DNA of 64,000 bases, from assembly GCA_043808425.1 (NCBI GenBank), contig JAZDEW010000064.1, positions 11,772 to 75,771 on the forward strand. The letters run 5' to 3'. Origin of the DNA: Candidatus Omnitrophota bacterium (GTDB lineage: Bacteria; Omnitrophota; Gorgyraeia; Gygaellales; Profunditerraquicolaceae). The position numbers were made by a program, and so were the translations under genes. Under the pieces are notes generated by a model. It saw only the letters and a list, made by a program, of their open reading frames with translations, was not told the DNA's origin and made no database searches. Of this stretch, positions 26,592 through 57,800 are shown piece by piece. Every line of letters begins with the position of its first letter. Position 1 is the first letter of the stretch.

Positions 26592-27985
26592 TCCCGCACT
26601 ACCTTTCGATCATTAAATTTCAATGCTCTATTTTTTAATATTTGATAATCCTCATGCCCTTTACCGGCAACCAGTAAGCAATCCGCCTGATTAATTAAAG
26701 ATAGCCCTTTACGAATAGCTTGCCGGCGATCGGAGATTGAACAATAATTGGTCTTCTGTATGCCCTGCTGAATATCCTTAATAATCTGGCCAGGGTTTTC
26801 CGAGCGAGGATTATCGCTGGTGATAATCGCATAATCCGCTAACTCCGTAACCACTTTGCCCATCTGCGGACGCTTAAGCTTGTCCCGCTCTCCGCCGCAG
26901 CCAAAAATTACAACAATCTTACCCTTAATCAACGGCCTTAGAGCGCTAATCACATTAAAAAGCGCATCCGGTGTATGCGCATAATCAACGAAAATACTGC
27001 CTACTTTTGAACAATTAATTTTTTCTAATCTGCCGGGAACATTTTTAAATTTTTCAATCGCACGCTTAATATCCTGAACGGGTAATTTTTCACTTAACCC
27101 CCAGGCAACCGCAGCCAAAATATTATAAATATTATAACATCCTACCAGACTTGTCTTCATCCTGACATAAATATGTGGAGCAACTAATAAAAATTCCGTT
27201 GACTGCAGGTTAAAATTAATCTCCTTGGCCATTATATCAGATTTTCTCTTTATCCCATAAGTTAATATCTTAGCTTTAGTTAAACGCTTAATCCGGTTAC
27301 CATGCTGATCATCATTATTAATAATCGCTGTGCTGGTTGCCGGTAGGGCAGAAAAAAGTTTAGCTTTAGCTAAGAAATAATTTTTTAAGTTCTTATGATA
27401 ATCCAGGTGATCCTGGGTAAGATTGGTAAAAACAGCGTGGCTAAAATTAATTCCTGCCGCCCTCTCCTGGGCTAAAGCATGGGAAGAAACTTCCATCGCG
27501 CAATATTTAACTTTTCCTAGATACATCTTCCTAAGTAGTCCTTGCAGCTCCGCGGCTCCGGGAGTAGTATTTTTGGCAATAATAATTCTACCCTTAAAAC
27601 GGTAATTAATCGTACCAATCACTCCGCAGTCATAGCCGGATTCTTTGGCCATCCGTTCGATCAAATACGCAATAGTCGTCTTACCGTTAGTGCCGGTAAT
27701 GCCGACAACTTTAACCTTATTTGAAGGAGCGCCATAAAACTTATGCGTAACTTGGGCAAAAAACTTGCGACAATCATTAACTACTAAAAATACAACTTTT
27801 GCCCGGGATTTTATCTGAGGCGCCTTTTTCTCAACAACAACGATAACCGCCCCACGAGCAATTGCCTCTTGAATAAAATGATTGCCATTTTGACGCTCGC
27901 CCTTAATCGCCACAAAAAGAAAACCTTTTTTTATTTCTTTGGAATTAGAAGTTATTCCTTTAATCTCTAAATCAACGATTTTCAC
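26570..27985 (-). CDS. murE: UDP-N-acetylmuramoyl-L-alanyl-D-glutamate--2,6-diaminopimelate ligase
   Basis: Mur ligase with GTNGKTT P-loop. GTG start at 27985. Confidence 0.85.
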   Translation of the reverse strand: MKIVDLEIKGITSNSKEIKKGFLFVAIKGERQNGNHFIQEAIARGAVIVVVEKKAPQIKSRAKVVFLVVNDCRKFFAQVTHKFYGAPSNKVKVVGITGTNGKTTIAYLIERMAKESGYDCGVIGTINYRFKGRIIIAKNTTPGAAELQGLLRKMYLGKVKYCAMEVSSHALAQERAAGINFSHAVFTNLTQDHLDYHKNLKNYFLAKAKLFSALPATSTAIINNDDQHGNRIKRLTKAKILTYGIKRKSDIMAKEINFNLQSTEFLLVAPHIYVRMKTSLVGCYNIYNILAAVAWGLSEKLPVQDIKRAIEKFKNVPGRLEKINCSKVGSIFVDYAHTPDALFNVISALRPLIKGKIVVIFGCGGERDKLKRPQMGKVVTELADYAIITSDNPRSENPGQIIKDIQQGIQKTNYCSISDRRQAIRKGLSLINQADCLLVAGKGHEDYQILKNRALKFNDRKVVRECLRLMK

Positions 27986-27991
27986 TGTGCG

Positions 27992-28079
27992 CCTTCCTGC
28001 CTGCCGGCAAGGCAGGCTTTCTTACTTGATTTATCAAGCCATATGCTTTTAATAATTGAATACTTAGAAGGTACTAGGT
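27992..28079. repeat. Bipartite intergenic repeat element, copy A, in the ftsI-murE spacer
   Basis: Imperfect palindrome CCTGCCTGCCGGCAaGGCAGG, then an AT-rich stretch, then the 26-nt stop-proximal box gaatacttagaaggtactaggttca that overlaps the ftsI stop. About 80% identical to copy B over roughly 80 nt. Confidence 0.7.
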
Positions 28080-29777
28080 TCATTGTCTTCTTGCCTCCAC
28101 AGGTATTTGGCTTCCTTTTAAGTAACGGATAACATCTCCGGCGACTTTTTGAAATACCGGAGCAGCAACTACCCCGCCAAAATAATAGGGATGCGGCTCA
28201 TCCACGGTCACCACGATAGTTAATAAAGGGTCTTCGGCAGGTAAAAAACCAATAAAAGAAGCCACAAACTTATTATGAGAATAACTTCCATCCGGCTCAA
28301 CTTTCTGGGCAGTACCCGTTTTACCGGCAGCGCTAAACCCCAGAACCTTACCCATTTTACCTGTTCCTTCCTCAATTACTCCGGTAAGGATTTTTTTAAT
28401 TCGCAGCGCCGTATCCACAGAAATAACTTTACGCATCAATACTGGTTTATTTTGCTTAATAATCCGGCCCTGATTATCACGCACAGAATCAATAATATAC
28501 GGCTTCATTAATTGCCCCCCATTAGCAATTACGGAAATTGCGCTAGCCAATTGCAAAGCACTCACCCCTACTTCGTGCCCCATAGGCACCGAGGTAATCG
28601 ATGCCTTCGACCAAAGACGCGGCGGGCTAATCATCCCCGATATTTCTCCGGAAAGATCAATTCCTAATTTTGATCCAAAACCAAAAGCCCGGATGTATTG
28701 ATACAACATATCCGGGCCTAAAAGCTGGGCCACCTTAACAGTGCCGATATTACTAGACTCTTCAATAATCTCCCTAAAAGTAAGCCGGCCATGCGGTTTA
28801 TGGTCATGCAAAATACGGCCCCCTACCTGGTAAGATCCATTTTCACAAAAAAATACATCTTTCTCCGTAACCTTTTTTTCTTCCAGCGCGGCAGAAGCGG
28901 TAACTATTTTAAATACTGAACCAGGCTCAAATAAATCACAAATTGCCCGATTTCGCATCGAATCCTTACTCGCGCCAGAATGATTATTTAGATCATAAGT
29001 AGGCCGATTAGCCATAGCTAAGATCCTACCGGTATGCGGGTCCATCACCACGATACTAGCGCCCTTAGCGTGAAAATCGATAAAAGCCTTATCTAGCTCT
29101 CTCTCCGCGATATATTGAACAACCTCATCAATGGTCAAAACTAAATCCATACCATCTTGCGGCAAAACCATCTTCTCCCAAATATCTAATTTTTTCATCC
29201 GCGCATCACGTAAAAAAATCGCCCAGCCAGGAACACCTTTTAAATAATTATCAAAGCTTCTCTCTACGCCCTCTAGGCCAATATTATCCATACCGCTAAA
29301 ACCAATAATGTGGCTAGCCAAATAACTATTTGGATAAATACGTTTAGTTTCCCTTAAAAACCCTAATCCTTTAATATTTAAATTCTTGATTGCCTCGGAT
29401 TTATCCGGAGCAAGCTTACGCGCCAGCCAAATAAAAGACTTTTTACGACTCAATCTATCCTGCAAATAGCTGTGCTTTAAGCCAAGTATGGGCAATAATT
29501 GCCTGATAACAGACTCTTTGTCTTTAATAATATTAGGAACAGCATAAAGAGAATCCATGGACATATTAAATGCCTGCGCCTTAAGATTACAGTCATAGAT
29601 TGCCCCGCGAGGCGGTTCCAACTCCACAAGCTGATTATGTTGTTTTTTAGCGATTGAGGTAAGATAATCCGAACGGAATAGCTGAATAAAAAAAAGTCGG
29701 CCCACGCAAAGCAAAAGAAATACAAAAAAAATCAAAAACACCGCCTCACATCTTCGGCGATAGTTACTGATATACAC
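28080..29777 (-). CDS. ftsI: Peptidoglycan D,D-transpeptidase FtsI (PBP3)
   Basis: N-terminal transmembrane helix, PBP dimerisation domain, and transpeptidase motifs SVFK, SSN and KTGT. Confidence 0.88.
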   Translation of the reverse strand: MYISNYRRRCEAVFLIFFVFLLLCVGRLFFIQLFRSDYLTSIAKKQHNQLVELEPPRGAIYDCNLKAQAFNMSMDSLYAVPNIIKDKESVIRQLLPILGLKHSYLQDRLSRKKSFIWLARKLAPDKSEAIKNLNIKGLGFLRETKRIYPNSYLASHIIGFSGMDNIGLEGVERSFDNYLKGVPGWAIFLRDARMKKLDIWEKMVLPQDGMDLVLTIDEVVQYIAERELDKAFIDFHAKGASIVVMDPHTGRILAMANRPTYDLNNHSGASKDSMRNRAICDLFEPGSVFKIVTASAALEEKKVTEKDVFFCENGSYQVGGRILHDHKPHGRLTFREIIEESSNIGTVKVAQLLGPDMLYQYIRAFGFGSKLGIDLSGEISGMISPPRLWSKASITSVPMGHEVGVSALQLASAISVIANGGQLMKPYIIDSVRDNQGRIIKQNKPVLMRKVISVDTALRIKKILTGVIEEGTGKMGKVLGFSAAGKTGTAQKVEPDGSYSHNKFVASFIGFLPAEDPLLTIVVTVDEPHPYYFGGVVAAPVFQKVAGDVIRYLKGSQIPVEARRQ

Positions 29778-32641: not shown

Positions 32642-33613
32642 CTATTTTAAGTCCTGACAAATTTTAGCAATAACTTTACCTCGCACAGCCAAGAACCCTC
32701 CGGGAATAGTGCAACCGGCGGCAGTCTTATGCCCTCCCCCTCCAAAAAAAGATGCGATCTTATTTACGTCAACCTTACCCTGGCTTCTTAAATTAACACG
32801 GATCTGGGATTTTAAGCTTAAGCTATCCTTAAATAATACTACCACCTCTACTCCTTTAATCGCCCGGCCAAAATTTAAAGCATAGTCCGCTAAATCAGTC
32901 CCCGGTATTTTAGCTCCGGATGGCTCAGCAGCGATTCTAAGGGCAGCAATCCTTCCCCGGCCAAAAAATTTTATTTCTAACAATAATTTAAGCAGCGATT
33001 TTACCTCTGAGGGCAAAATATTTTCATAAGCATAACGATAGACCCGCGCGACATTAATTTTAAATTTCAAAAGTTCCGCGGCAGCCTTAAACGTAGAACT
33101 AGAAGTATTAGAATAGCGAAATGATCCTGTGTCCGTCATGATGCCCGTGTACAAAACTAAAGCGGTGTTTTTATCCAACGGCAAACGTAGATGTTTATAC
33201 AACCGATAAATCATCTCTGAGCAGGAAGAGGCCCGCGCGTCTACCCAATTTACATCGCCAAAGGCCTGATTGCTAATATGATGATCAATATTTAATACCG
33301 GCTTATGATCGATGTTAAGCTTATGGACTCTTCCTGTGCGCTTTAAGTCCGCGCAATCCAGAACCACTAAACAATCAAATTTAATAGATTTAAATTTCTG
33401 GCCTAAGCGGCGAATATATTTAATCCCGGGAAGAAAATCATAACCATAAGGTAATTGATCATCGCTCATGATTATGGCCCGTTTACCTAATTTTTTAATA
33501 AGCCTATAAAACCCCAGCGCAGAACCCAGGGCATCAGCCTCCGGGCTGATATGAGCAGTAATCAAAAAATTATTATATTTCTCTATACTCTGGCAGATTT
33601 CATTTAGGCTCAT
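32642..33613 (-). CDS. nrnA: DHH/DHHA1 phosphoesterase, NrnA-like oligoribonuclease / pAp phosphatase
   Basis: DHH family motifs (HISPEADALGS, LNIDHH) with a C-terminal GGGGH DHHA1 motif. Confidence 0.75.
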   Translation of the reverse strand: MSLNEICQSIEKYNNFLITAHISPEADALGSALGFYRLIKKLGKRAIIMSDDQLPYGYDFLPGIKYIRRLGQKFKSIKFDCLVVLDCADLKRTGRVHKLNIDHKPVLNIDHHISNQAFGDVNWVDARASSCSEMIYRLYKHLRLPLDKNTALVLYTGIMTDTGSFRYSNTSSSTFKAAAELLKFKINVARVYRYAYENILPSEVKSLLKLLLEIKFFGRGRIAALRIAAEPSGAKIPGTDLADYALNFGRAIKGVEVVVLFKDSLSLKSQIRVNLRSQGKVDVNKIASFFGGGGHKTAAGCTIPGGFLAVRGKVIAKICQDLK

Positions 33614-33700
33614 CTTACACCTTCCTGCCTGCCGGCAGGCAGGCTTTCTTAATTAATTTATCAAACTGCATAACTTTAATAATTAAATACTTAGCTAAGT
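33614..33700. repeat. Bipartite intergenic repeat element, copy B, in the rbfA-nrnA spacer
   Basis: Perfect 20-nt palindrome CCTGCCTGCCGGCAGGCAGG at 33624-33643, lying 10 nt upstream of the nrnA ATG after AAGGTG on the coding strand, then an AT-rich stretch and a degenerate stop-proximal box. Confidence 0.7.
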
Positions 33701-34114
33701 GCCTGGCTCTTCCGTTTTTTTTGCTTGATCAGGAGTCTCCGACGCAGGTGGAACAACCGCCCCTGGCTCCTTGCTGTCAACGGGTTTTATCTTGTTTAAT
33801 ATCTCCTGAATCTTAACGCTATACTCAATAGAATGATCCTCTTGAAACATCAGCTCAGTGGCAAAACGCATATTAATCCTCTGGGCCACCAGGCTGCGGA
33901 TATACCCTAAAGCAGAATCCAGGGCGATTTTAGTTTTTTTACAGGTATCCTCTTTACCCAAAACGCTATAAAAAATATTCGCATTTTTTAAATCCTTAGA
34001 CAGCTCTACCCGCGTGATCGTGACAAAACCTATACGCGGATCTTTAAGCTCGTCATGGATAATAAGACTAACTTCTTTTTTAATCGCCTCTTCAACACGC
34101 TGTTGTCTAGACAT
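33695..34114 (-). CDS. rbfA: Ribosome-binding factor A
   Basis: KH-like RbfA fold. N-terminal RQQRVEEAIKKEVSLII. Confidence 0.8.
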   Translation of the reverse strand: MSRQQRVEEAIKKEVSLIIHDELKDPRIGFVTITRVELSKDLKNANIFYSVLGKEDTCKKTKIALDSALGYIRSLVAQRINMRFATELMFQEDHSIEYSVKIQEILNKIKPVDSKEPGAVVPPASETPDQAKKTEEPGT

Positions 34115-35410: not shown

Positions 35411-35420
35411 CTTCTCCCAA

Positions 35421-35469
35421 CCTACGACCTATGACCTATCAGCTATGACCTGCGACCTACGACCTATCA
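35421..35469. repeat. Seven tandem CCTAYGA heptamers that exactly fill the xerD-cca intergenic space
   Basis: cctacga cctatga cctatca gctatga cctgcga cctacga cctatca. The array runs from the xerD stop to the GGGAGAAG ribosome-binding site of cca. Confidence 0.7.
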
Positions 35470-36357
35470 CTATGGCCGCGGATGAAACATCTGATAAACC
35501 GTTTTAAGCCGCTCTTTATCGATATGCGTATAAATCTGGGTTGTCGAGATATCAGAGTGTCCCAGCATCTCCTGCACTGAACGCAGATCCGCGCCTCTTT
35601 CCAGTAGATGCGTGGCAAATGAATGCCTAAGAGTATGCACTTTTATCGATTTTTTAATTTTAGCCTCTTGGGCATACCGCTTAATTAATTTCCAAACAGA
35701 CTGCCGGGATAGCTTAGCCCCAGAACGACTGATAAAAATAAACTCTGAAGTTTTTTGTTTTAAAAAATACGGCCGGCTGAATTCTAAATAACGATTAATA
35801 CCATGAATAGCTTTTTTGCCCAACGGAATAATCCTCTCCTTATCTCCCTTTCCAATACAACGCAAAAATCCAATATCTAAATTAACATTATTAGTTTTAA
35901 GATTGCTTAATTCCGATACGCGCATTCCTGTGGCATAAAGAGTTTCTAAAATTGCCTTATCTCTAGCGCCCTGGCGCTCACGCACATCAGGCTGGCTAAT
36001 TAATAACTCCACTTCATTTAAAGAAAGGGTGTCCGGAATCTTCTTCCACAATTTTGGAGAATCAATCAAAGTAGTCGGATCGCTTTTTAAAACTCTTTCT
36101 CTGGCTAAAAAACGATGAAACATGCGTATCGCCGCCAAACGGCGCGAGATACTTACCGGCGATATTCCAGCAGTTTTTTGAAAAAGCATAAATTCCACAA
36201 TGTCGTTTTTAGTAACCTTGGAAAGCGCCGATATTCCTCGTTTATCAATAAAATCCAAATAAAGATTCAAATCCACCCGATAGGCAAAAATGGTATTTTT
36301 AGCCAGAGCGCGCTCAACCAAAAGATAATCTAAAAATGAGTCAATAAGTTCTTTCAC
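35470..36357 (-). CDS. xerD: Tyrosine site-specific recombinase XerC/XerD
   Basis: N-terminal SAM-like domain and C-terminal catalytic R..HxxR..Y motifs (HTLRHSFATHLL ... IYTH). GTG start. Confidence 0.8.
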   Translation of the reverse strand: MKELIDSFLDYLLVERALAKNTIFAYRVDLNLYLDFIDKRGISALSKVTKNDIVEFMLFQKTAGISPVSISRRLAAIRMFHRFLARERVLKSDPTTLIDSPKLWKKIPDTLSLNEVELLISQPDVRERQGARDKAILETLYATGMRVSELSNLKTNNVNLDIGFLRCIGKGDKERIIPLGKKAIHGINRYLEFSRPYFLKQKTSEFIFISRSGAKLSRQSVWKLIKRYAQEAKIKKSIKVHTLRHSFATHLLERGADLRSVQEMLGHSDISTTQIYTHIDKERLKTVYQMFHPRP

Positions 36358-36433
36358 CTCGCACCTTCTTTTCTATTTAATACATTAAACCAGACAGCTT
36401 TAATGATGGAATATCCAGAAGGTGCGGGGCTCA

Positions 36434-41067: not shown

Positions 41068-41159
41068 TTTGCTTCCTCCTTTTAATTTCTACATCAATCA
41101 ACTCCAACATCTTCTAACCCTTTAATTGAAAAACATATCCACTCATTGCTGTCCAAATT

Positions 41160-41222
41160 ACGTCATTCTGAGCGTAGCGAAAAATCGCGTACCGTCGAGA
41201 TTCCTGCCTGCCGGCAGGCAGG
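41160..41222. repeat. Composite repeat: a half-copy of the 44.2 kb hairpin-repeat arm fused to the 20-nt CCTGCCTGCCGGCAGGCAGG palindrome
   Basis: cgtcattctgagcgtagcgaaaaatcgcgtaccgtcgagattc matches, in reverse complement, the right arm of the hairpin repeat in 44233..44357 (gaatctcgacg...cgctcaggatgacg). It is followed by the perfect palindrome at 41203-41222. Confidence 0.6.
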
Positions 41223-41273
41223 CTTCGTCGCTCCGCTGCCCAAAATAAAAAGCGTATATTTATATCTCAAAAA

Positions 41274-41597
41274 TTATTCTCGACGATAGATAATGTTTAA
41301 TTTGGACACGAGTGCTCTTTCATATATGATCCTTCCCTTAGATAAAATCCTTTTCTGGAAATGTTCTCTGATGTCGTCAAAATCGACCATATCAACTTCA
41401 TCATCTACCGCCATAGAGATTCTTCCATAATATTTAAAAAAGTCCTTAGCCTCAATTCCTTCTACCGCTATATCAATATCATTAGCCGTCTCAACGCTTT
41501 CCAGGCATGAGCCAAACAAAAATACTTTTTTCACATCAAACTCTTTGCTAATTTCTCCTATTTTAATCAATTCATTATCTAAAATTTCTTTTTTCAT
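41274..41597 (-). CDS. Minimal nucleotidyltransferase (MNT-like, pol-beta superfamily)
   Basis: GSxxxG..DxD-type motif (FLFGSCLESVETANDIDIAV). No HEPN partner ORF is adjacent. Confidence 0.7.
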   Translation of the reverse strand: MKKEILDNELIKIGEISKEFDVKKVFLFGSCLESVETANDIDIAVEGIEAKDFFKYYGRISMAVDDEVDMVDFDDIREHFQKRILSKGRIIYERALVSKLNIIYRRE

Positions 41598-41669: not shown

Positions 41670-44126
41670 TTATTTAAAAATATCTAAAAAAAACCGGCCG
41701 GCCTGAACTATTTTTTTTATTGTCTCATCATCGGGTAATGGAATTTGAAGCGCCGGTTTCCCGGTTGCTTCATCTTTTTTTATTTTAATTCCAAAAGGAG
41801 GCTGCGTATCTGATAAAACCGATTCTTCCTTGGTATCGCTGTCAAGCTGTTTAAGCATCTTACCCAAAAAAGAAATCCCGGCTTCTAAAAAATTCCGCGC
41901 GGCTTCTCTAACAAACACGGGTTCCTGGGAAAAAGTTTTCTTGGCCTCTTCTTTTTGGCTATCTTCCTCTATAACCTCTTCGCGCGCCGCCTGTTCATCT
42001 TTTATTACTTCTTCAAACCCACCCCGCGAAACTTTCTCTTCTATCTTAGGTATACCCTCCGCGGCAGTCTCGACTGTTTTAATAAACTGATTAAAACGAG
42101 ACGTTCCCATAAACACTTCATTCTCTCCATTATCAAGTATGCCGGAAAACATGGAACGTTTAAATTTAAGAAGCGACAACATTCCCTGTTCGATAGAACC
42201 TTCGGTAATAAAATTAATCACCCTGACACAACGTTTTTGCCCTATGCGGTGAACACGGCAGATACGCTGCTCCAAAACCGCAGGGTTCCACGGTAAATCC
42301 AGATTAATAACCGTGGACGCGTTTTGCAGGTTAAGCCCCAGCCCGCCTGCCTCTGTTGATAAAAATACGCGGCAATTAGAATCTTCTTTAAACCTGCTGA
42401 TAAGTTCTCCTCGTTTATTACCCGGCACGCCTCCGTGGAGCCAGACGTATTTCCAACCACGCGCGTTCATCATCGCCATAACGAGTTCAAACATCCGAAT
42501 CCATTGTGAAAAAATCACTACTTTAGCGCCGCGATCTTCCAATAAATCTTGCAGTTGTATTTCTAATTCGCCAATTTTATTGCCGCTTCTTTTATTTAAG
42601 CCGATCAAATACGTATCGTCGCTAACCATTCTCATATTTTGCAGAGCCATCATCAGGCGCTGTTTATCCTCTTCGCTCAAAAACTTATACCGTTTCCATT
42701 TATTCACAATCCGGGCGGTAATCTCCCTGTTTTCTTCATGAATGGCAGACTGTTCGGCAGTCATTGCCACAAAATACTCTTTTTCTATTCGCCCGGGAAG
42801 CTGCGCTAAAACTTCTTTTTTCCTCCGGCGTATCAAAATAGGCCTTAATGATTCTCCTAATTTATTAAGATTGCGATATCCAATCGCCCGCCCTGTTTCA
42901 TCTATTATTTCGTGCGTATGCCGAAAACGAAAAAGCGGCCCTAAATGGTGCTTATCAATAAATCCGACAATAGAATGTAATTCTTCTAATCTGTTTTCCA
43001 GCGGCGTTCCGGTAAGGACAATCGCGTAAGGAGAGTAGATTTTTTTTACTGATTTGGCTAACCGCGTCCTCCAGTTTTTAATGCGCTGCGCCTCATCAAG
43101 TATTATAATATCCGGCTTCCATCCTTCAATAGCCTTAATATCGCGATGGATCACGTCATAATTGGTAATCTTAAAAAAACTCTCTTGCTTATACAATAAT
43201 TGTCTTTTAGATAATAAGCCCTGAACCACTTGAACAGAACGATGACTAAATCGCTGGATCTCTTTCTCCCATTGATGTTTTAAACTGGTAGGGCAAATAA
43301 TCAGCGCCTTTTCAATTCCAAAACAATCAGCCATAATTTCACTCGCCGCAATAGCCTGCAATGTTTTGCCCAGCCCCATATCATCCGCTATTATGCATCT
43401 GCCGGCTATTGCCGCGAATAACGCCCCTTCTTTTTGATAAGGGTATAATTTCGCCTTTAGTAAATCTCCAAACGCGGCGTCTTGTCCGCCCCGCGGAAAC
43501 TTTTTCTCAACGCGCTTTCTGCGGATATCCGCGTCTTTGGCCATAGCGATAAATAATAACGCGTCTTCATGATAGCGGACATCATCATCTAACAAATCCA
43601 CCTGTTTAACAAATTCATCAAAATGCTGCAAGCCCTCCGCGATTAGAAAGCCCTCGTGATCGAAAAATTGGTTAACTAATTTCTTAAGCGGATTACTAAC
43701 GCGCCGCCCCATAGAAAAGGCAACGCGGCGCCTAAGCCCATACCTCAAGGTAACAAAGGAATATTCCGGGACATAACCTTCTTTAAGTATCTTTTTTGCC
43801 CCCTTTTTTCTTCGTAATCTGCGTAAAAGGTATTCGATATGCTTACAGGTCCCTAATGTATTTACGGAATAATCAGGGCAAGAACAATAATTAACCCCTA
43901 ATTTCTCTCCCCAAATTACAACTCGATAGGCCCTTTCTGTTTTGAGATTAGTTAGTTCAAATGTTGAAAAAATTAGATCCGCGCCGATATTTTTTACCCG
44001 ATAAGCCTCATCTTGAGCAATCTGCCGCCTAAGTAGAATCTGCCATTCTTCTAAAGATAATTCCTTAGGTTTTACTGTATGCGAAAACCTTTTTATTACT
44101 TTTTTACTTTTTTTCTTTGTGGACAT
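41670..44126 (-). CDS. SNF2-family helicase/ATPase with an N-terminal SWIM zinc finger
   Basis: SWIM CxC...CxH motif (YCSCPDYSVNTLGTCKHIEYLL), SNF2 motifs I and II (DDMGLGKTLQAIA; ILDEAQRIKN) and a helicase C domain. Confidence 0.85.
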   Translation of the reverse strand: MSTKKKSKKVIKRFSHTVKPKELSLEEWQILLRRQIAQDEAYRVKNIGADLIFSTFELTNLKTERAYRVVIWGEKLGVNYCSCPDYSVNTLGTCKHIEYLLRRLRRKKGAKKILKEGYVPEYSFVTLRYGLRRRVAFSMGRRVSNPLKKLVNQFFDHEGFLIAEGLQHFDEFVKQVDLLDDDVRYHEDALLFIAMAKDADIRRKRVEKKFPRGGQDAAFGDLLKAKLYPYQKEGALFAAIAGRCIIADDMGLGKTLQAIAASEIMADCFGIEKALIICPTSLKHQWEKEIQRFSHRSVQVVQGLLSKRQLLYKQESFFKITNYDVIHRDIKAIEGWKPDIIILDEAQRIKNWRTRLAKSVKKIYSPYAIVLTGTPLENRLEELHSIVGFIDKHHLGPLFRFRHTHEIIDETGRAIGYRNLNKLGESLRPILIRRRKKEVLAQLPGRIEKEYFVAMTAEQSAIHEENREITARIVNKWKRYKFLSEEDKQRLMMALQNMRMVSDDTYLIGLNKRSGNKIGELEIQLQDLLEDRGAKVVIFSQWIRMFELVMAMMNARGWKYVWLHGGVPGNKRGELISRFKEDSNCRVFLSTEAGGLGLNLQNASTVINLDLPWNPAVLEQRICRVHRIGQKRCVRVINFITEGSIEQGMLSLLKFKRSMFSGILDNGENEVFMGTSRFNQFIKTVETAAEGIPKIEEKVSRGGFEEVIKDEQAAREEVIEEDSQKEEAKKTFSQEPVFVREAARNFLEAGISFLGKMLKQLDSDTKEESVLSDTQPPFGIKIKKDEATGKPALQIPLPDDETIKKIVQAGRFFLDIFK

Positions 44127-44444: not shown

Positions 44445-47222
44445 TTAACTCAATAATTGCTTAGTGAAAATTTCTTCAAAAACTTGTTCTTTTTCTTTAT
44501 TAAATAATGGCAATCCGATTAATTTATAATCCTTATTTTCCGCTTTCAGCAAATTTCCATTACTATATTTATCCGTAATTTGTTGTAAAAATTCTTCTTT
44601 CCAGCCTTCTTTGCTCTCTTTAAATCCGTTTTTTTTATCCGCAAATTGTCCGCCTTTCGGTTCAATAAAAATTTGATAGTATAAATTGCCTTTTTTGCCT
44701 TTCAAAAACAGCAAAAAGTCCGGCTCAAATCCGCGCCCCTGCTCAAAGTCATAAATTTTATATATTTCTTCATTTCGAAGCAAATAAACCTCATTATATT
44801 TCTCTTCTAAATTTCCAATTCTATCCTTTAAAAATTCAAGTAAACCAATTTCTTCACTTGTTCCAACAAAACCATCCAGCACATACCATTTATTTTTCAA
44901 TACTTCGTTTTCATAACTTTTGCTATACTTTTCTATATTTATACTTTTTTCTTTTGGCTCGCCAAACAAATCCTCAAAAGAAAAAGATTCAAATTTTTCT
45001 GTTCCTTTATATGGATTAGCGATTTCTTTAAGCTTTCTTGCAAATTCATCAAAAAACCCCAGTAATAATTCCAGCTTTTCTTCATTACTAATATCGCTTA
45101 AATCGTTTTTATCTTTTGGGGCAATTATATTGATCTTAAAATTGCCAATAAAATTATCCGTAAAGATTTCATCAATACTGTTTAAGCTCAATTCATTCTG
45201 TAAATTTTCAAACCGCAAAAGCGACAAATCTTTTGCCGCCTTTTTATTGATTGCTTTCGCGATGATATGCTTTTCAAAATCTTTAAGTTTTTTACTAATT
45301 GTTTTACTGCCTTTTGATAAACTTTCCGTGAGAATTTCATCTTTCTCTCTATCTAAGATAACCTGCTGTTCTTTCATTGCGAACTTTCTCGTTTTATATT
45401 CAAAAACAAACTCTTTTTCCAGCTCAGCCAATGTCATTTTTCTTTTTACCGGATTGTCCTTTTTTTCGTTTTTCCAGACTTTTATTTCTTTGAAAAAATC
45501 GCTTTGCTTAAATTCATCTTTTAGCGCGAATTTCTTTATCTGGCGATTCTCTTGAATAAATCCTTTATTTTTAAGCTCTCTTTTTAATTCGTCAAGATAA
45601 TGCGAATCATCATCACTATGATAATAAAATTCTTCCAATACTCTAAGCGGATTTTCCAAATCATTATCAAATTTTCTTTTGTTTTTCTCGCACTCATTAT
45701 AGGCAAAAGGAAAATAACGCACGCCTCTGCCGATTAGCTGAATTTCTTGTACAGTCGCCTCTCCGGCTTTTCTTTTTCCGGTGCTTTTTTCTTTTCCTTC
45801 ATCGCGCCCTTCGTAAAGCCTGACAATATCAAAAAGATTCAATACATCCCATCCTTCTGTTAACCGTTTTACCGTAAAAACCGCGCGAATATGATTATTT
45901 TTATCTTCCAAACTATTCAGCAATTGATCCTGCTCTTCTGTCGTCCTCTCCTTAGTAATTGCCTTATTGTCTTTTGAATTGGTTATAATACAATTTCTTT
46001 CGGCAAACTCGTCTTTAATATAGTTCACGATTTTGCTAATGCTTTTTTTATCATTAATAAACTTAAGCATTTGCTTAACCCTGCTTCTGCCTTGCTCATA
46101 TACCTTAGTTGAATTTGAATCATCTTGTTTTATGCTATTTTCAATGTTTTTTAAAAAATCAAAATCAGCCGGTTTTAATTCGGCAATTAGAGATATAAAT
46201 TCTTGATAATCATTTTTTGATTCTTCAATAAATTTGCTTCTAAAAAGTATTACCGGCTTGAAATTAGCAATCTTGTTTTTAAGCGCGATTTGATGGCGAT
46301 ACCAGTTAAAAAGCAAGGCGAGCAAGATCTTTTCTTTCTTTTTCAGCGAAGTTGAAACAAGGTTTATTTCTTTGGTATAGCCGGCTCTAAGAAAGTCAAC
46401 GAGTTCAAATTTATAAATTGTTTTAGGACGGTATTTTTCTATAACATCCACGTTTTGCGGTATTGTCGCGGTGAATTCCAATAAAACATTTCTATTCTCA
46501 ATATCTTGCTTATTCTTACCTCTTTTTAGGATTTTATTAATTATTGTATTTTCCCAGCTTTTCTCAATATCTTTTTCGCTGGCACTTTCCTTCAATTCCA
46601 AAGGTAAATCCAATTCAGCCTGCCCGTTTCTCATTGTTGAAGCGTTAAGATGATGCGCTTCGTCGCCAATCATTACCAAATCTTTTTTCTGCAAATCGAA
46701 AAGCGTCACTTCGTTTTCTTTAGCCAAATAAACCGCGTTATGAAGCTTGTGAATTGAAGTAAATTTTATCTGAATATCGTCCGTGCTGTCAAAAGTCTCC
46801 ACTTTGCGGATATTGATGGTTCTATCTTCAATCACGATATTTTGACGAAAAATGTATTTGGTGTGATTTTTATTGATAAAATTATTTTCCGTCTTATCTA
46901 CGATATTGTTTTGATTAACAAAGAAAATAAAATACCTGCGGCCTTTTTTGTAGTAATACAAAATCAACGCCGCCATCAGCATGGTTTTGCCGGTGCCGGT
47001 CGCCATATTAAACATCAGATGCGTCGGCTCAAAATTATTCTCTTTTACTTTGATCTTTTCCCAAATTAAAAAACTTTCCAACGCTTCTTTCTGCCATTGC
47101 CACAAAGAATGCCGGATATTTTCCGCGATAAAAACCGGTATCTGCACATCCTGCTTGGTAATACCCAAGTTAAAAGCTTCATCTCTAACTTGACCGGATA
47201 AATCCCTGCTTAAATCATACAT
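44445..47222 (-). CDS. res: Type III restriction-modification system restriction subunit (Res; helicase plus PD-ExK nuclease)
   Basis: Walker A motif FNMATGTGKT, DEAH box IGDEAHH, C-terminal EPDF...IEPKG nuclease motif. It lies downstream of a DPPY methyltransferase gene. Confidence 0.8.
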   Translation of the reverse strand: MYDLSRDLSGQVRDEAFNLGITKQDVQIPVFIAENIRHSLWQWQKEALESFLIWEKIKVKENNFEPTHLMFNMATGTGKTMLMAALILYYYKKGRRYFIFFVNQNNIVDKTENNFINKNHTKYIFRQNIVIEDRTINIRKVETFDSTDDIQIKFTSIHKLHNAVYLAKENEVTLFDLQKKDLVMIGDEAHHLNASTMRNGQAELDLPLELKESASEKDIEKSWENTIINKILKRGKNKQDIENRNVLLEFTATIPQNVDVIEKYRPKTIYKFELVDFLRAGYTKEINLVSTSLKKKEKILLALLFNWYRHQIALKNKIANFKPVILFRSKFIEESKNDYQEFISLIAELKPADFDFLKNIENSIKQDDSNSTKVYEQGRSRVKQMLKFINDKKSISKIVNYIKDEFAERNCIITNSKDNKAITKERTTEEQDQLLNSLEDKNNHIRAVFTVKRLTEGWDVLNLFDIVRLYEGRDEGKEKSTGKRKAGEATVQEIQLIGRGVRYFPFAYNECEKNKRKFDNDLENPLRVLEEFYYHSDDDSHYLDELKRELKNKGFIQENRQIKKFALKDEFKQSDFFKEIKVWKNEKKDNPVKRKMTLAELEKEFVFEYKTRKFAMKEQQVILDREKDEILTESLSKGSKTISKKLKDFEKHIIAKAINKKAAKDLSLLRFENLQNELSLNSIDEIFTDNFIGNFKINIIAPKDKNDLSDISNEEKLELLLGFFDEFARKLKEIANPYKGTEKFESFSFEDLFGEPKEKSINIEKYSKSYENEVLKNKWYVLDGFVGTSEEIGLLEFLKDRIGNLEEKYNEVYLLRNEEIYKIYDFEQGRGFEPDFLLFLKGKKGNLYYQIFIEPKGGQFADKKNGFKESKEGWKEEFLQQITDKYSNGNLLKAENKDYKLIGLPLFNKEKEQVFEEIFTKQLLS

Positions 47223-47248
47223 ATTATTTGGGGTTATAAAATTTTCGC

Positions 47249-48301
47249 TTAAGGCAATATCCTCTTTTGAGATTCGGTATTTTTTAAAAGTTTTTTTACT
47301 TCACGATCAAAATCAGAAACAAAAAGTTTGTCTTGAACCGGTTTGTATTTCTCGAATTCGCTTTCCGCGAAAGATTTAGCTATTTCTGCCGTTACTTTTC
47401 CCGCGTTTTCCAAAATTTTCGCATCGTTAAATTTCAGAAAAGCGTTTAATTTTCCTGACCAGTCCCGCATTGTCATGGGTATCCCTTTTTCCGCTTGGTA
47501 TTCGGCATAATCAAGATACATAGTTACAATTCTGTTTAAAAATTTTATTTCTTTTTCATTAAGATAATTTTTGGCAATTACCACATCGGATTTTAGAATT
47601 TTCCCGTCCGCTGATTTTTTCCAAGTAGTAAGCCCCATATAGTCTTTAGTGTGATTGGCGCGATTGACAATAACTTCCGCCGCCGTGTGCCCATGCGTGG
47701 CAAAATGAAGTTTGTTTTGAACTGTGGCAAAAAAATCTTTGGTCGTTGGAGACCGTAAATCATAATCAATTGCAGTTACATAAATATCTGTAATTTGTTG
47801 ATAAAAATTTCTTTCACTCTCGCGAATATCGCGAATTTCAAGTATCAAATCTTTGAAATACTGCTTACTTAAATATGCTCCATTTTTTAATCTCACATCG
47901 TCAAGAACATATCCCCGAATAGCGTAATCTTTCAAAACTTGAGTAGCCCACCGTCTAAAATCTACTGCCTTTGAGGAATTAATTCTGTATCCAAGAGCGA
48001 TAATAATTTCTAAATTATAATAGTCAACCGCTCTTTTTATCTGCCTATCTCCTTCTTTTTGAACTGTTTCCAAAATGGAAATAGTTGCTTTTTTTGACAA
48101 TTCTCCTTCATCGTAAATATTTTTTAAATGTTTGGAAATAGCCGGAATATTCACGTCAAAAAGTTTTGCGATAAGTTTTTGAGTAAGCCAAATATTTTCA
48201 TCGTAAATTCTCACTTCAATGCCATTCTCTTCGGCTTGAGATGTGAAAATAAGAAATTCCGCGGTAGAATTACGAATTATAAGTTTTTTATCTTTTGCCA
48301 T
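47249..48301 (-). CDS. rhuM: RhuM-family protein (virulence protein RhuM-like)
   Basis: N-terminus AEFLIFTSQAEENGIEVRIYDENIWLTQKLIAKLFDV...HLKNIYDEGEL matches the conserved RhuM N-terminal domain. It is intercalated between mod and res. Confidence 0.65.
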   Translation of the reverse strand: MAKDKKLIIRNSTAEFLIFTSQAEENGIEVRIYDENIWLTQKLIAKLFDVNIPAISKHLKNIYDEGELSKKATISILETVQKEGDRQIKRAVDYYNLEIIIALGYRINSSKAVDFRRWATQVLKDYAIRGYVLDDVRLKNGAYLSKQYFKDLILEIRDIRESERNFYQQITDIYVTAIDYDLRSPTTKDFFATVQNKLHFATHGHTAAEVIVNRANHTKDYMGLTTWKKSADGKILKSDVVIAKNYLNEKEIKFLNRIVTMYLDYAEYQAEKGIPMTMRDWSGKLNAFLKFNDAKILENAGKVTAEIAKSFAESEFEKYKPVQDKLFVSDFDREVKKLLKNTESQKRILP

Positions 48302-48309
48302 AATTATAT

Positions 48310-50316
48310 CTAACGGGGTAAATAAAATTCTTCGCTTAAAGCGATATCTGCTTTGGAAAGATTATATTTTTTATCCGCTCGCTCGCTAAAATTCACATAC
48401 ATTTGGTTCAGATCCAACATTTCCACAAAAAGTTTTTTCTGTTTGTCCAAACCCAGCTTTTTAAATTCTTCCTCTTTAACGCTTTCTTGGAATTTTTTAA
48501 TTTCAACATTGTAATTGATAAAATATCGTTCATAAAGCTCATCAAATAATTTTTCCAATTCGCTTAAATTCTTGGCTTTCAAAATTCTCTCTTTGGCTTC
48601 TTCGTTCCATTTGGCAATTTCAAGATATACAAAATCCCCAGCCTTATTGTTTTCAATAACTTTTTTAACCCGTTCTTTTGTCACTGTATCAACATAGTGC
48701 ATTTGCTCGCACAAAATAAACTGCCGGTTTCCGCCATCTTCTTTGTTTAATTCTAAAACCGCGTGAGCGGTGGTTCCGCTTCCAGCAAAAAAATCAAGAA
48801 CAATATCTTCTTTACCTCGCTCTGTAACAATATCAATAGTATCTTTAACTGTATAAAGGGATTTAGGATAACTAAATAATTTATCTCCCGAAAAAATATT
48901 TTTCAATAGCATCGTACCATTTGCTGAAGCATCATATTTTGAATCAATCCATATCGTTTTTGGCTTTCTGCCATCCTTAATTCTATCCTTCATATAAATA
49001 ACACATTTTCCAGTAGTTTTTTTACAAACCATATCACCTCTTTTAACAGCTTCTAAAAAAGATGGCCGTGTTTGTCTCCAAACTCGTTTTTTCCCAAGCT
49101 TATCAATTGGAAATATTTCAATGTATCCCGATTTTTTATCAAGAGCAAAAATATTATTTTTTTCATCAAAATATATTGGATAGTATGAATTCGGCCTTTC
49201 TTCTGGAGTAGAAGTTCCGCCACTTCGCCTAAACGGCAAAAGACGATAGTCCCCTGAATTATCTTTTTTATCAAAATCTAATTCTTGCTCTTTTGTTAAT
49301 TTAAGAAAATTCAACGAAACCTGATCAATATCTTTCGCATAAAACATTGCGTACTCGTGTGAAGTCGCAAAATGCGTATTTGTAGTTCTGCCCCGTGGAT
49401 TACTTTGCACAATAACCGTACCAACAAAATTTTCTCTTCCAAATACTTCGTCGCTTAAAATTTTCAAATGAGCTTGCTCAGAATCATCAATGGTAACAAC
49501 AATTACTCCCTCGTCGCTCAATAATGTTTTTGCTATGTCCAATCGATTCTTAATAAAAGTCAGCCAAGAAGAGTGGTTAAAACTGTTATTATAGACAAAG
49601 GTATTATTTTCTCCTTCTGTATTATACGGCGGATCAATATAAATCAATTTTACTTTTCCAGCAAATTGCTCTTTTAAACAATGCAAGACAAGCAAATTAT
49701 TGCCCTTGATAATCAAATTATCCTTAATCACGCCATTTTCATCGCGGCGAAAACCGAGATTGCCGCGGTCGCTATCGCTCCCTCGCAATGACAGCATAGA
49801 ATGCTCGCCGTCTCTGTCTATTCGTTTAAAATTAGTAAATGCTTTGGGATCAAAAAGCCGGTCAATTTCATCTTTGGCTAAAACTTCATTAAAGAATACC
49901 TCGTTTCTTTTTTGATCTTCTTTGGTCATGCCGCCTTCCAACACACAATCCTTGAAAGGCCAATCCAAAACAACCTCTTCACGCTCGGAAAGAAGTTTAT
50001 TGCCAACGCGTAAACCGATTTTATTTTGATATTGAGTATACGAATTATCCAGCTTATTTTCATCAATAAAAAATTTCAAATCATTATGTTTTAAAACAAA
50101 AACATCTTTAATCCTGATAAAAAACTTTTCTTTTATTTCTTTATCGCTAAGTAACAATTCAATAATTTTCTCATCCAGCTTATCAATCAAATCTTTCAAA
50201 AGAGTCTCGTTGATCTCTTTTTTTTCTTCATCCCAAAGCCGAGCGTCTTTTTTAAGTATTTTATACAGATTGTCTTTAAATTTGTTTCCCATAGTAAAAT
50301 TTTCCCTTTTTTCCAT
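48310..50316 (-). CDS. mod: Type III restriction-modification system methyltransferase subunit (Mod; beta-class N6-adenine/N4-cytosine MTase)
   Basis: Motif IV DPPY (LIYIDPPYNTE) precedes motif I FxGSG (VLDFFAGSGTTAHAV), which is the beta-class order. A long middle region is consistent with a target-recognition domain. Confidence 0.82.
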   Translation of the reverse strand: MEKRENFTMGNKFKDNLYKILKKDARLWDEEKKEINETLLKDLIDKLDEKIIELLLSDKEIKEKFFIRIKDVFVLKHNDLKFFIDENKLDNSYTQYQNKIGLRVGNKLLSEREEVVLDWPFKDCVLEGGMTKEDQKRNEVFFNEVLAKDEIDRLFDPKAFTNFKRIDRDGEHSMLSLRGSDSDRGNLGFRRDENGVIKDNLIIKGNNLLVLHCLKEQFAGKVKLIYIDPPYNTEGENNTFVYNNSFNHSSWLTFIKNRLDIAKTLLSDEGVIVVTIDDSEQAHLKILSDEVFGRENFVGTVIVQSNPRGRTTNTHFATSHEYAMFYAKDIDQVSLNFLKLTKEQELDFDKKDNSGDYRLLPFRRSGGTSTPEERPNSYYPIYFDEKNNIFALDKKSGYIEIFPIDKLGKKRVWRQTRPSFLEAVKRGDMVCKKTTGKCVIYMKDRIKDGRKPKTIWIDSKYDASANGTMLLKNIFSGDKLFSYPKSLYTVKDTIDIVTERGKEDIVLDFFAGSGTTAHAVLELNKEDGGNRQFILCEQMHYVDTVTKERVKKVIENNKAGDFVYLEIAKWNEEAKERILKAKNLSELEKLFDELYERYFINYNVEIKKFQESVKEEEFKKLGLDKQKKLFVEMLDLNQMYVNFSERADKKYNLSKADIALSEEFYLPR

Positions 50317-50325
50317 AATATAATT

Positions 50326-51162
50326 TTATTTCAATTTTTTAGTTTTTAATTTTGGCAAAAAGTTTTCGCCTGTAATCACGCTTTTTCCAGTTTTTTCTTC
50401 CAAAGCCGTTCTCGCGTCTTTAGCAATTTTACCGCCTTTCTTCGCGGGAATCTTGTTAGCCTCCAAACCTTTTGTTTCCATAGTTTCCGCGATTTGGCGA
50501 GTGGAAAGTTCCGCCAAGGCCGTAAAAACCAATTCCGCGTCAGACATATGATCCCGTAAATTTTGCGTCTTTAACTTCTTTAAATTTTTATGTTCTCTAA
50601 CCGACAAATCACTCCATTCTTGGTGGATAATATTTGTCAAAATAGCGTATTCGTCTTTTTCTTCAACTTCGTTGTCTTTCCAGTAATCCGTCAGCTTATT
50701 CCTAACTTCCTGCCCCATCATTCTTTGCTGAATCCATTTTTGGCTTCGGCCCATTTTTTGCCAATAATCACGGCTGCGATTAAGTGCTTTTTCAGGATCA
50801 CTTATTTCTTTTATTCTTTCATAACCAACTTTTGCAAGCCAAAGCTTTATCGGCTCGGCTTTTTTACTCGGAACCGATTGAATAATTCTAAATAGATGCT
50901 CAGGATTTCCGGCTAAAGTTTTTCTGTTTTTCCCTGTTTCCGTGCCCATTTCTATCTGGGGACAATTTGTCCCTATGTAGCGGCCAAGTTCAGAATCCCT
51001 TTTTCTTAATTTTTTCAAGTAATCCGTGGGATTGACGCTTCCAGTAAGCGCAAAAATAATATCCACCACGGAAAAATACCATGATCCTTTTTGTTCATCA
51101 TAGAAACGCCGGATTTTATAGGTTTCAAAAATTGCCAATGAATTTTGATTATTTTTCTTCAT
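50326..51162 (-). CDS. Bro-N / KilA-N domain protein (DinD-like, DNA-damage-inducible protein D family)
   Basis: N-terminal IRRFYDEQKGSWYFSVVDIIFALT matches the Bro-N fold. It is the first gene after radC in the defence operon. Confidence 0.55.
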   Translation of the reverse strand: MKKNNQNSLAIFETYKIRRFYDEQKGSWYFSVVDIIFALTGSVNPTDYLKKLRKRDSELGRYIGTNCPQIEMGTETGKNRKTLAGNPEHLFRIIQSVPSKKAEPIKLWLAKVGYERIKEISDPEKALNRSRDYWQKMGRSQKWIQQRMMGQEVRNKLTDYWKDNEVEEKDEYAILTNIIHQEWSDLSVREHKNLKKLKTQNLRDHMSDAELVFTALAELSTRQIAETMETKGLEANKIPAKKGGKIAKDARTALEEKTGKSVITGENFLPKLKTKKLK

Positions 51163-51908: not shown

Positions 51909-51986
51909 TGGTCGGGGAGAGCGGATTTGAACCGCTGACCTCTTGCTCCCGAAGCAAGCGCTCTAGCCAAGCTGAGCCACTCCCCG
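51909..51986 (-). tRNA. tRNA-Pro (anticodon CGG)
   Basis: Minus-strand sequence CGGGGAGTGGCTCAGCTTGGCTAGAGCGCTTGCTTCGGGAGCAAGAGGTCAGCGGTTCAAATCCGCTCTCCCCGACCA folds as a cloverleaf. It has a 7-bp acceptor stem, a GCTC/GAGC D stem, a CTTGC/GCAAG anticodon stem with loop TTCGGGA, a GGTTCAAAT T loop and an encoded CCA. Confidence 0.88.
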
Positions 51987-55224: not shown

Positions 55225-55297
55225 CAGGCACCTTCTAATTTATTCATTCTTTTTAGCCTTTTAGTTTTTAGTATTGAATACAAAGAAGGCGCGGGGT

Positions 55298-57502: not shown

Positions 57503-57600
57503 ACCTCTCCTTGCCCACAAGGGCACACCCGCGCTCCCTACCAAGGGACACCGGCGCGATTCAAATTAGCGCCGCGTAACTTCTTAGCGCCAAGAGCAAT

Positions 57601-57644: not shown

Positions 57645-57800
57645 ATACTCATTGGCGGGTCCGCCGTACATTATAGCGGAAATCTTCTTCCATCTGGACT
57701 ATGACCATCGGCCCTGGAATCTCACCAGATCTGTCCGCCAATGAATTAAAGGCTGACTCGCGGGCTAAACCGCCGGTAAGGATTTTCACCTTGCCCTAAA
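57645..57800 (-). ncRNA. FMN riboswitch (RFN element) controlling ribBA-ribH
   Basis: Minus strand has AGGGCAAGGTGAAAATCCTTACCGGCGGTTTAGCCCGCGAG ... CAGATCTGGTGAGATTCCAGGGCCGATGG ... AGTCCAGATGGAAGAAG. These match conserved RFN blocks (GGTGAAATTCC, CCGGCGGTA, AGCCCGCGA, GATCTGGT, GATGGGAGAAG). Confidence 0.8.

Follow-up and report, generated by a model that had tools for sequence, protein, structure and literature searches.

A 20-nucleotide (nt) palindrome, CCTGCCTGCCGGCAGGCAGG (PAL hereafter), recurs close to start codons in a 64,000-nt stretch of Candidatus Omnitrophota DNA (assembly GCA_043808425.1, contig JAZDEW010000064.1, positions 11,772 to 75,771 of the forward strand), which was analyzed as a whole and is called the window below. 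The structural account that we favor, and that we consider probably correct, is that PAL, a mini-palindrome of cosmopolitan occurrence, has been inserted into a miniature inverted-repeat transposable element (MITE) residing at gene junctions, and that it is now found in this setting at several junctions of this Omnitrophota lineage. The window has a G+C content of ~40% and carries every long open reading frame (ORF) on its minus strand; gene identities were taken from Pfam together with one source's name for the protein.

A probable mobile spacer at gene junctions and the palindrome within it

PAL is present in three exact copies in the window and in a fourth, imperfect copy of 21 nt that has one base extra in one arm (its 3' part on the plus strand reads CCTGCCGGCAAGGCAGG). 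An earlier note, made from the sequence of this stretch, had counted four copies of a 20-nt palindrome, one of them imperfect, and its coordinates for the first copy (27995-28015) were one base off and are corrected in the table below. In agreement with that note, the repeat is not a chance product, since no PAL match was obtained in 100 dinucleotide-preserving shuffles even when up to three mismatches were allowed. On the minus strand, AAGG(T/C)G follows the palindrome at three copies, again as the earlier note had described, and in all three (3/3) the distance from the end of PAL to the start codon is exactly 10 nt. Proximity to a start codon thus applies to three copies, as stated in the text of that note, and not to four, as in its title; at these three, a dispersed hairpin-forming repeat does directly abut the Shine-Dalgarno sequence of genes inside operons. 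Copy 4 lies in a 206-nt spacer, 51 nt past the previous stop and 135 nt ahead of the next start, and is nested in another GC-rich repeat (GAGCGACGAAG, then PAL, then AATCTCGACGG). All four copies, including this one outside the modules described below, share the arrangement AAG-PAL-AA. The spacer region around copy 4 (41140-41270) folds better than its shuffles (z = -2.8), and the plus-strand sequence CGTCATTCTGAGCGTAGCGAAAAATC at 41161-41186, 17 nt from copy 4, resembles, in a degenerate form, the NTS/Ssn-related motif CGTCATTCCCGCG...GCGGGAATC (PMC11893778).

Table. PAL copies, spacer modules and adjoining genes in the window, with the relatives that have an empty site at the same junction
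Feature	Position	Strand	Length (nt)	Location	Details	Empty sites
Module s1	27985-28078	minus	94	ftsI/murE	Left end CCTAGTACCTTCT, AT-rich core, PAL, right end AAGGCGCACAG; TGAA at 28079-28082 (holds ftsI stop) and 27981-27984; final module base G + TG = murE GTG start	L121, L122, L124
Module s2	33613-33706	minus	94	rbfA/nrnA-like	Right end AAGGTGTAAGA + TGAG (33609-33612) = ATG start; left duplication decayed to AGAG (33707-33710); rbfA stop now TAG within module (33695-33697)	L123, L124
Module s3	59392-59505	minus	114	radical-SAM methylthiotransferase/pgsA-like	Extra 18-nt internal segment; TGAA at 59506-59509 (upstream stop) and 59388-59391	
Module s5	36357-36429	minus	73	metallo-beta-lactamase-fold/xerC-like	No PAL; inverted ends CCCCGCACCTTCT / AGAAGGTGCGAGG; TGAG at 36430-36433, TGAA at 36353-36356; module end forms xerC-like GTG start	L123, L124
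Module s6	55224-55296	minus	73	nusB/PHP-domain gene	No PAL; TGAA at 55297-55300 (nusB stop) and 55220-55223	
PAL copy 1, imperfect	27996-28016		21	Within module s1	10 nt 5' of murE GTG start	
PAL copy 2, exact	33624-33643		20	Within module s2	10 nt 5' of nrnA-like ATG start	
PAL copy 3, exact	59403-59422		20	Within module s3	10 nt 5' of pgsA-like ATG start	
PAL copy 4, exact	41203-41222		20	Outside modules	Far from starts; adjoins SRM/NTS-like sequence	
murE	GTG start at 27985	minus			PAL copy 1 upstream	
DHH/DHHA1 nrnA-like gene	ATG start at 33613	minus			PAL copy 2 upstream	
CDP-alcohol phosphatidyltransferase, pgsA-like gene	ATG start at 59392	minus			PAL copy 3 upstream	

At the three start-proximal copies the homology extends across the whole 81-114-nt intergenic spacer. 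A profile search with these spacers recovered two further copies in the window, modules s5 and s6, and located the module at the ftsI/murE junction of the relatives L123 (82% MurE identity) and L222 (89%, the closest relative); the spacer copies of the window and of the relatives align along their length. Five copies of the module are thus present in the 64-kb window, with eight others in related contigs. The outer element measures 73-114 nt and is made up of 13-bp inverted ends (consensus CCCCGCACCTTCT ... AGAAGGTGCGGGG) around an AT-rich core, with a 4-bp TGA(A/G) target duplication. Read in the direction of the genes, the order is TGA(A/G), CCCCGCACCTTCT, the AT-rich core (including TGTATTCAATTATTAAA), AG, AAGGTGCGGGG and TGA(A/G) again. 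The right ends of all 13 copies consist of (A/T)AGG(T/C)G followed by 3-6 nt and TGA(A/G), and the seven recognizable left ends have TGA(A/G) followed by the inverted repeat. The inverted ends agree at 12 of 13 positions in s5, and the consensus right end is present in L222 and L224. Longer duplications of 7-8 nt at the spacer ends were also considered but were resolved, with more copies and empty sites, into the 4-bp TGAR plus chance or repeat-derived matches. By its anatomy, the outer spacer is MITE-like and comparable to Correia elements.

That the spacers are insertions follows from the organization of the orthologous junctions. Relatives were graded by MurE homology, and those with empty sites have 80-85% MurE identity. 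In these, the overlap amounts to 4 nt (ATGA) between ftsI and murE and to 14 nt between rbfA and the nrnA-like gene, and the lactamase-fold gene and xerC abut; at the same three junctions the window has a 73-94-nt spacer. In addition, TGAA or TGAG occurs once at the three empty sites examined in relatives and on both sides at occupied sites, which identifies TGA(A/G) as a 4-bp target duplication.

The sequence at the module ends indicates how an operon could survive such an event. The stop codon of the upstream gene is the left TGA itself in s1, s3 and s6, and in s5 it lies just ahead of the left TGA. The motif AAGGTG within the right repeat serves as Shine-Dalgarno sequence at 4 nt from the start, and the last base of the element together with the duplicated TG makes up the start codon, which is GTG with the consensus G and ATG where that base is A. 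One can thus envisage that the outer spacer inserts at overlapping or abutting junctions of the ATGA type, duplicating TGA(A/G); the left TGA copy would keep stopping the upstream gene, the right inverted repeat would bring the Shine-Dalgarno sequence AAGGTG, and the last base of the element (G, in some copies A) would combine with the TG of the right duplication, so that the downstream gene begins with GTG or ATG and keeps its original frame. Because stop, Shine-Dalgarno sequence and start would all be regenerated, the operon would survive insertion. In copies without PAL, the stem formed by the inverted repeats would sequester the Shine-Dalgarno sequence in the mRNA, and a ribosome that reaches the TGA directly ahead of the left repeat and terminates there could melt that stem, so that translational coupling would be kept. 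At 61540-61560 on the minus strand, two native genes overlap (ATGA), and ahead of this overlap stands GAGAGAAGGTGCTGA-ATG, with the same AGAAGGTG motif and 4-nt spacing as in the right repeat of the spacer, which suggests that the right repeat mimics, or derives from, a native translation-initiation context.

PAL itself is a secondary addition to this spacer. The modules that lack it (s5 and s6 of the window and those of L123 and L222) all read AG-AAGGTG at the point where PAL-bearing modules read AAG[PAL]AAGGTG, and the gap in the alignment falls cleanly between AG and AAGGTG. PAL is hence a separate, clean insertion of ~20 nt located 11 nt from the right end of the element. The constant 10-nt spacing to the start codon is then explained by the position of PAL in the module and by the fact that the last base of the module opens the start codon. 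Since the module at the same ftsI/murE site of L222, the closest relative, is without PAL, the PAL copy at murE must be recent. Scanning metagenomes for AAG-PAL-AAGG yielded five further contigs with the same arrangement and a GTG start 6-7 nt after AAGG, the genes that follow being ftsQ-like, tsf (two contigs), rnfA/nqrE-like (a membrane protein) and hom, so that PAL-bearing spacers are found at eight junctions in this lineage. Directly ahead of PAL, TAAGAAAG is present in 7/8 PAL-bearing copies and in 0/5 PAL-less ones. As a sequence marker, it favors a single acquisition of PAL by a master copy that subsequently spread.

As RNA, PAL is predicted to form an 8-bp stem with a CCGG loop (-13.9 kcal/mol). 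When folded in mRNA context the PAL hairpin forms and adjoins the Shine-Dalgarno sequence, as the earlier note had envisaged, but the hairpin corresponds to the 20-mer alone and AAGGUG remains outside it, so that occlusion of the ribosome-binding site, which that note had put forward, finds no support in the predicted fold. In modules without PAL, by comparison, the inverted repeats are predicted to pair and to enclose the Shine-Dalgarno sequence, with z = -3.9 for s5 and -3.2 for s6. Entering between AG and AAGGTG, 11 nt from the end of the spacer, PAL would thus place its hairpin beside, and not over, the Shine-Dalgarno sequence in the mRNA. What comes after PAL on the sense (minus) strand is AAGGUG and not a U-tract, and a role as intrinsic terminator of the operon was discarded on this ground; a U-rich tract (CUUUCUUAAU) follows PAL on the antisense (plus) strand, where the terminator pattern was matched exclusively. 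Given the lack of a sense-strand U-tract, PAL should not terminate the operon. A promoter and terminator scan found no consensus promoter in the spacers. Rfam 15, run over the whole window at gathering thresholds and over three spacers at permissive E-values, gave no credible family over the spacers (the sub-threshold scores are weak and do not exceed 21.9 bits, the cut-off being 39.9), and its only matches in the window, an FMN riboswitch and a tRNA, are both located elsewhere.

The best-placed alternative sees PAL as a cis-regulatory RNA hairpin under selection, which would adjust downstream translation or mRNA stability. It would act either as a 5' stabilizer, once the transcript has been processed or initiated internally, or as an obstacle beside the ribosome-binding site. 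We regard this as unlikely. A stable hairpin does lie directly 5' of the Shine-Dalgarno sequence, and the recurrence of PAL-bearing spacers at eight junctions would fit a selected function. Furthermore, a TG-n-TAAAT-like extended -10 motif can be read from the alignment ~10-15 nt upstream of PAL in s1 and s2, although it was not flagged by the promoter scan, and a transcript starting from it would open with the PAL hairpin. However, sister spacers work without PAL before the xerC-like and PHP-domain genes, and so does the murE spacer of L222; the downstream genes have no common function, and the Shine-Dalgarno sequence lies outside the hairpin. In other phyla, moreover, PAL has no fixed distance to starts and, as described below, it also occurs in tRNA and protein genes. 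Since the sister spacers, like the murE spacer at the orthologous site, operate in its absence, we take PAL to be tolerated at these sites rather than required.

Occurrence of PAL in other genomes, in viruses and within genes

A scan of species-representative genomes revealed PAL in at least 120 species genomes belonging to ~14 phylum-level groups. Among the matches listed (at least 120), with groups assigned by record title, Bacteroidota (38 genomes, seven of them cultured isolates) and Patescibacteria (36) are the most numerous, followed by metagenome-assembled genomes (MAGs) labelled 'Gammaproteobacteria' (11), Omnitrophota (10) and Planctomycetota (6). Fifteen others belong to smaller groups, i.e. 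Bdellovibrionales, 'delta proteobacteria', Thermodesulfovibrionales, Thermodesulfobacteriota, Chloroflexi, Elusimicrobia, Verrucomicrobia, Ignavibacteria, Pseudomonadota and the PVC group, and four are unclassified ('bacterium'). By our own arithmetic, fewer than one match would be expected by chance in a uniform collection of 596 Gb, and we estimate that chance matches number at most a few in all and are limited to GC-rich genomes. In the viral contigs of IMG/VR, 35 stretches contain PAL, compared to 0 and 0 for two control palindromes of matched composition.

The sequences flanking PAL are unrelated between loci. In loci below 50% G+C, 84 of 101 PAL copies are intergenic according to a simple ORF call, and distances to the nearest start are scattered outside the window lineage, which makes the 10-nt rule a particularity of the spacer in this lineage. 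Where a locus has further copies of PAL, these secondary copies often bear mutations. The viral contigs contain the arms CCTGCCTGC/GCAGGCAGG with a CG center (42 copies), with no center (29 copies of a sibling 18-mer, CCTGCCTGCGCAGGCAGG) or with a one-base center (14), the latter two forms at IMG/VR loci L161-L221, and a single 29.5-kb viral contig (L146, L153, L154) has at least six exact PAL copies. PAL also nests inside other GC-rich repeats and inside PAL copies (L018, L021, L042, L049). It is often located between or beside 7-nt tandem repeats, such as AATTACG, TCTAAAA and TGAGAGG (L045, L080, L082, L101, L128, L134, L144 and others). Perfect 7-nt flanking repeats were found at 5/168 PAL copies (~3%) against 0.05% in controls, a ~60-fold enrichment, and they mostly fall within heptamer tandem repeats. 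An extension of the hairpin past 20 nt was examined and rejected, the flanking positions displaying only a weak A...T preference (26%).

In a number of cases PAL lies within genes. The clearest is a tRNA-Met of the viral contig L150 (PAL at 2284-2303), which ARAGORN calls both with and without the palindrome; the tRNA is 92 nt with PAL and 72 nt without, and PAL sits exactly in the variable loop. The difference between the two lengths implies an exact 20-nt insertion without duplication. L127 (8616-8635) has the same tRNA with PAL, plus a deletion. In the cultured Agriterribacter humi YJ03 (L085, 67-86), PAL is located in the D-loop region of an apparent tRNA-Arg, which looks intact as far as the contig edge, where it is cut off, and in L157 (515-534) it lies in the D-loop region of a tRNA fragment. 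Intact tRNAs with PAL in the D-loop were considered for L015, L037, L099 and L157 and rejected, as these have no more than the 5' part of a tRNA, beyond which lie PAL and then sequence that is not tRNA. When PAL falls in long ORFs, it is read in the frame that encodes LPAGRQ in 9/9 cases (L013, L014, L021, L043, L047, L071, L074, L104, L116). In-frame homology continues on both sides of PAL in a dTDP-glucose dehydratase (L021, where a nested double copy accounts for 14 extra residues), in GatB (L104) and in ribosomal protein S6 (L047), and an FtsK-like protein (L013) was identified by motif reading. Homology that stays in frame on both sides means that the net insertion in coding sequence must be a multiple of three, probably 21 nt.

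These data bear on three other explanations. PAL could be an ordinary repetitive extragenic palindrome (REP) or REPIN that owes its spread to a RAYT (TnpA-REP) transposase encoded in this genome, a reading that agrees with a short, multicopy and mostly intergenic palindrome but that we consider very improbable. REP/RAYT pairs, in which the RAYT gene usually has the repeats on either side, are specific to a single genome or species, whereas the identical PAL sequence is present in many phyla and so is not lineage-specific. The ends of PAL are CCTG and CAGG, with neither GTAG nor CGTC, and its flanks are unconserved. Its copies are single, not arranged as inverted doublets, the rare double copies being nested one in another (L018, L021, L042), and no recurrent neighbor protein family, RAYT included, emerged from 155 loci. 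A GTAG or CGTC tetranucleotide at one end is given as the mark of most REPs (PMC3733652). The earlier designation as REP-like is thus fair as a loose description only, and does not extend to membership of the REP or BIME families.

Still less probable is that PAL is the operator of a palindrome-binding transcription factor coordinating cell-wall, lipid and RNA-turnover genes. A perfect 20-bp dyad that recurs upstream of genes and is highly non-random is what such an operator would look like; nevertheless, the sites lie inside operons at former gene overlaps and not at promoters, and the presence or absence of PAL differs at the same junction between close relatives. This 20-mer is shared by ~14 phylum-level groups and by phage contigs, where its neighbors are unrelated, with no recurrent gene family next to it in 155 loci, and the downstream set is heterogeneous (murE, nrnA-like, pgsA-like, ftsQ-like, tsf, rnfA/nqrE-like, hom). 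The shared regulon that the earlier note had suggested hence finds no support, considering the unrelated downstream genes, the PAL-less sister spacers, the arbitrary gene distances in other phyla and the copies in tRNA and coding sequences. Finally, that PAL arose artificially during sequencing or assembly, for instance as an adapter dimer or chimeric junction, as an identical short palindrome in many unrelated and mostly MAG assemblies might suggest, is the least credible explanation, because its genomic flanks are contiguous (two tRNA halves, or in-frame halves of conserved proteins), it is found in genomes of cultured isolates, long-read MAGs and a single-cell genome from different laboratories, mutated copies, a related 18-mer and copies with a 1-nt center exist, and there is a strong bias to intergenic DNA and particular phyla.

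A possible mobile nano-element and its carrier

Beyond the structural account, we tentatively propose that PAL and its siblings of 18-19 nt constitute an undescribed mobile 'nano-element' that crosses phyla, and that its carrier is a MITE built for overlapping stop and start codons and itself novel; we would put this somewhat below an even chance. Full-text literature searches with the 20-mer, with LPAGRQ and with descriptive terms returned no description of PAL. According to this proposal, a trans-acting enzyme, perhaps working on single-stranded hairpin DNA, would insert PAL precisely and without target duplication. The element would move among Patescibacteria, Bacteroidota, Omnitrophota, Planctomycetota and others, possibly via phages, and the short hairpin could persist, presumably near neutrality, by being tolerated in spacers, in a tRNA loop (where it would take on the look of a long variable arm) and, read as LPAGRQ, in loops of proteins.

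A number of observations weigh against the structural account or against mobility. First, the module is patchy at ftsI/murE, being present in the window, in L222 and in L123 and absent in L121 and L124, so that one has to assume either several insertions into the same site or an exact loss. No transposase or autonomous partner with matching ends was found, although no search aimed at one was made, and the label 'MITE' is founded on anatomy and on presence or absence at junctions; the left TGAR is degenerate in s2, and the left end was not recognized in several metagenomic copies. Instead of spreading from one master copy, PAL may have inserted independently at a preferred AAG|AA site, a possibility kept alive by the non-module copy at 41203, which also reads AAG-PAL-AA. 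The PAL hairpin may also have an effect on translation or mRNA stability. With respect to mobility, an all-against-all comparison of ORFs from 155 loci linked no gene to PAL, the largest ORF clusters near it being phage structural genes common to related viral contigs. Likewise, a regular target duplication for PAL was considered and rejected, as 7-nt repeats flank ~3% of copies only.

Two further junctions may be mentioned here. The spacer between the xerC-like and poly(A) polymerase-like genes holds in the window (35420-35467) ~7 heptamer repeats (minus strand GATAGGTC GTAGGTC ...). The orthologous spacer of L123 (2640-2700) has instead a degenerate PAL (CCTGATTGCCGTCAGGCAGG) lying inside another palindrome, itself decayed, that of L223 has other short repeats, and that of L124 is short. 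A hypervariable spacer, it brings heptamer repeats and PAL-type palindromes together. In L223, a relative of 81% identity, the spacer between the lactamase and xerC genes (1700-1775) has an NTS-like repeat, GTCATTCTGAGGAG...CGACGAAGAATC, with another small palindrome, TCCGCCCTAGGCGGA, in its loop. The nesting of small GC palindromes in larger hairpin repeats thus seems to be general.

Relation to known repeats, neighboring features and significance

Both elements resemble known repeats in part. Correia elements (CREE), ERIC, RUP and BOX are bacterial MITEs, small and non-coding, which bear inverted repeats at their termini and duplicate a short, specific target; they are co-transcribed with their neighbors, form RNA hairpins and can supply expression signals. 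The outer spacer differs in duplicating TGAR at stop/start overlaps, in having its own repeat act as Shine-Dalgarno sequence and in completing the start codon with its last base, and to our knowledge no element has been described that is directed to TGAR at gene overlaps and whose own end supplies both Shine-Dalgarno sequence and start. For PAL, one parallel is provided by the Rickettsia palindromic elements, which are ~100-150 bp long, confined to Rickettsia, selfish, and found in frame in protein genes and in RNA genes. Both are tolerated in genes, whereas PAL measures 20 nt, reads LPAGRQ when coding and is cross-phylum. Another parallel is with the small dispersed repeats that Elhai and colleagues are said to have described in 2008 from Nostoc and other cyanobacteria, which reportedly form hairpins of 21-27 nt, behave as insertions, nest in other repeats and in heptamer tandem repeats, and have no known transposase. 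These differ from PAL in sequence and occur within cyanobacteria, whereas PAL is identical in ~14 phylum-level groups and in viral contigs. REPs and REPINs (PMC3116915) are, like PAL, short multicopy extragenic palindromes of ~20 bp that have been proposed to be non-autonomous mobile DNA. In organelles of yeast, Volvox, sponges and placozoans, GC-rich palindromes invade AT-rich genomes, in spacers and sometimes in genes (e.g. PMC2670323 and PMC7813641); these are organellar and lineage-specific, whereas PAL is bacterial and viral and shared across phyla. Sharing across distant phyla has a precedent in the NTS/dRS3 hairpin family, which is tied to the horizontally spread GIY-YIG single-strand nuclease Ssn (PMC11893778). 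It is a precedent only, since PAL shares no part of CGTCATTCCCGCGMAVGCGGGAATCYRG or of the degenerate form of this Ssn-related motif (PMC11893778). A regular-expression scan of the window found no GIY-YIG-like ORF, and no gene recurs beside PAL in the 155 loci.

Some other features of the window may be mentioned. Near PAL copy 4 are a gene for a small nucleotidyltransferase (41274-41597) and one for an SNF2 helicase (41670-44126), both upstream of an island of low G+C (44445-51162; 33-35% vs ~40%) that adjoins a tRNA-Pro gene at 51909-51986. The island encodes a Type III restriction-modification system (Res helicase and Mod methylase) as well as RhuM-family and Bro-N proteins. The FMN riboswitch (57678-57807, minus strand, 110 bits) lies upstream of a ribBA fusion gene at 56294-57544.

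A conserved GC-rich dyad beside ribosome-binding sites is easily called regulatory, and here it is more readily explained as what two selfish elements, one nested in the other, have left behind. In gene prediction, GTG starts made by these elements are also to be expected. The spacer also illustrates a route by which mobile elements can enter an extremely compact genome, in that it targets the only kind of place at which stop and start are both recreated by a 4-bp duplication, and carries its Shine-Dalgarno sequence along; the inverted repeats may, in addition, preserve translational coupling. PAL-bearing tRNAs and proteins represent natural experiments on the insertion tolerance of structured molecules. 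The presence of one 20-mer in at least 120 species, ~14 groups and viral contigs implies either a very widespread mobilizing activity or frequent flow of DNA between phyla among uncultivated lineages, and the mobilizing enzyme, as with NTS hairpins and Ssn nucleases, could provide a new sequence- or structure-specific DNA tool.

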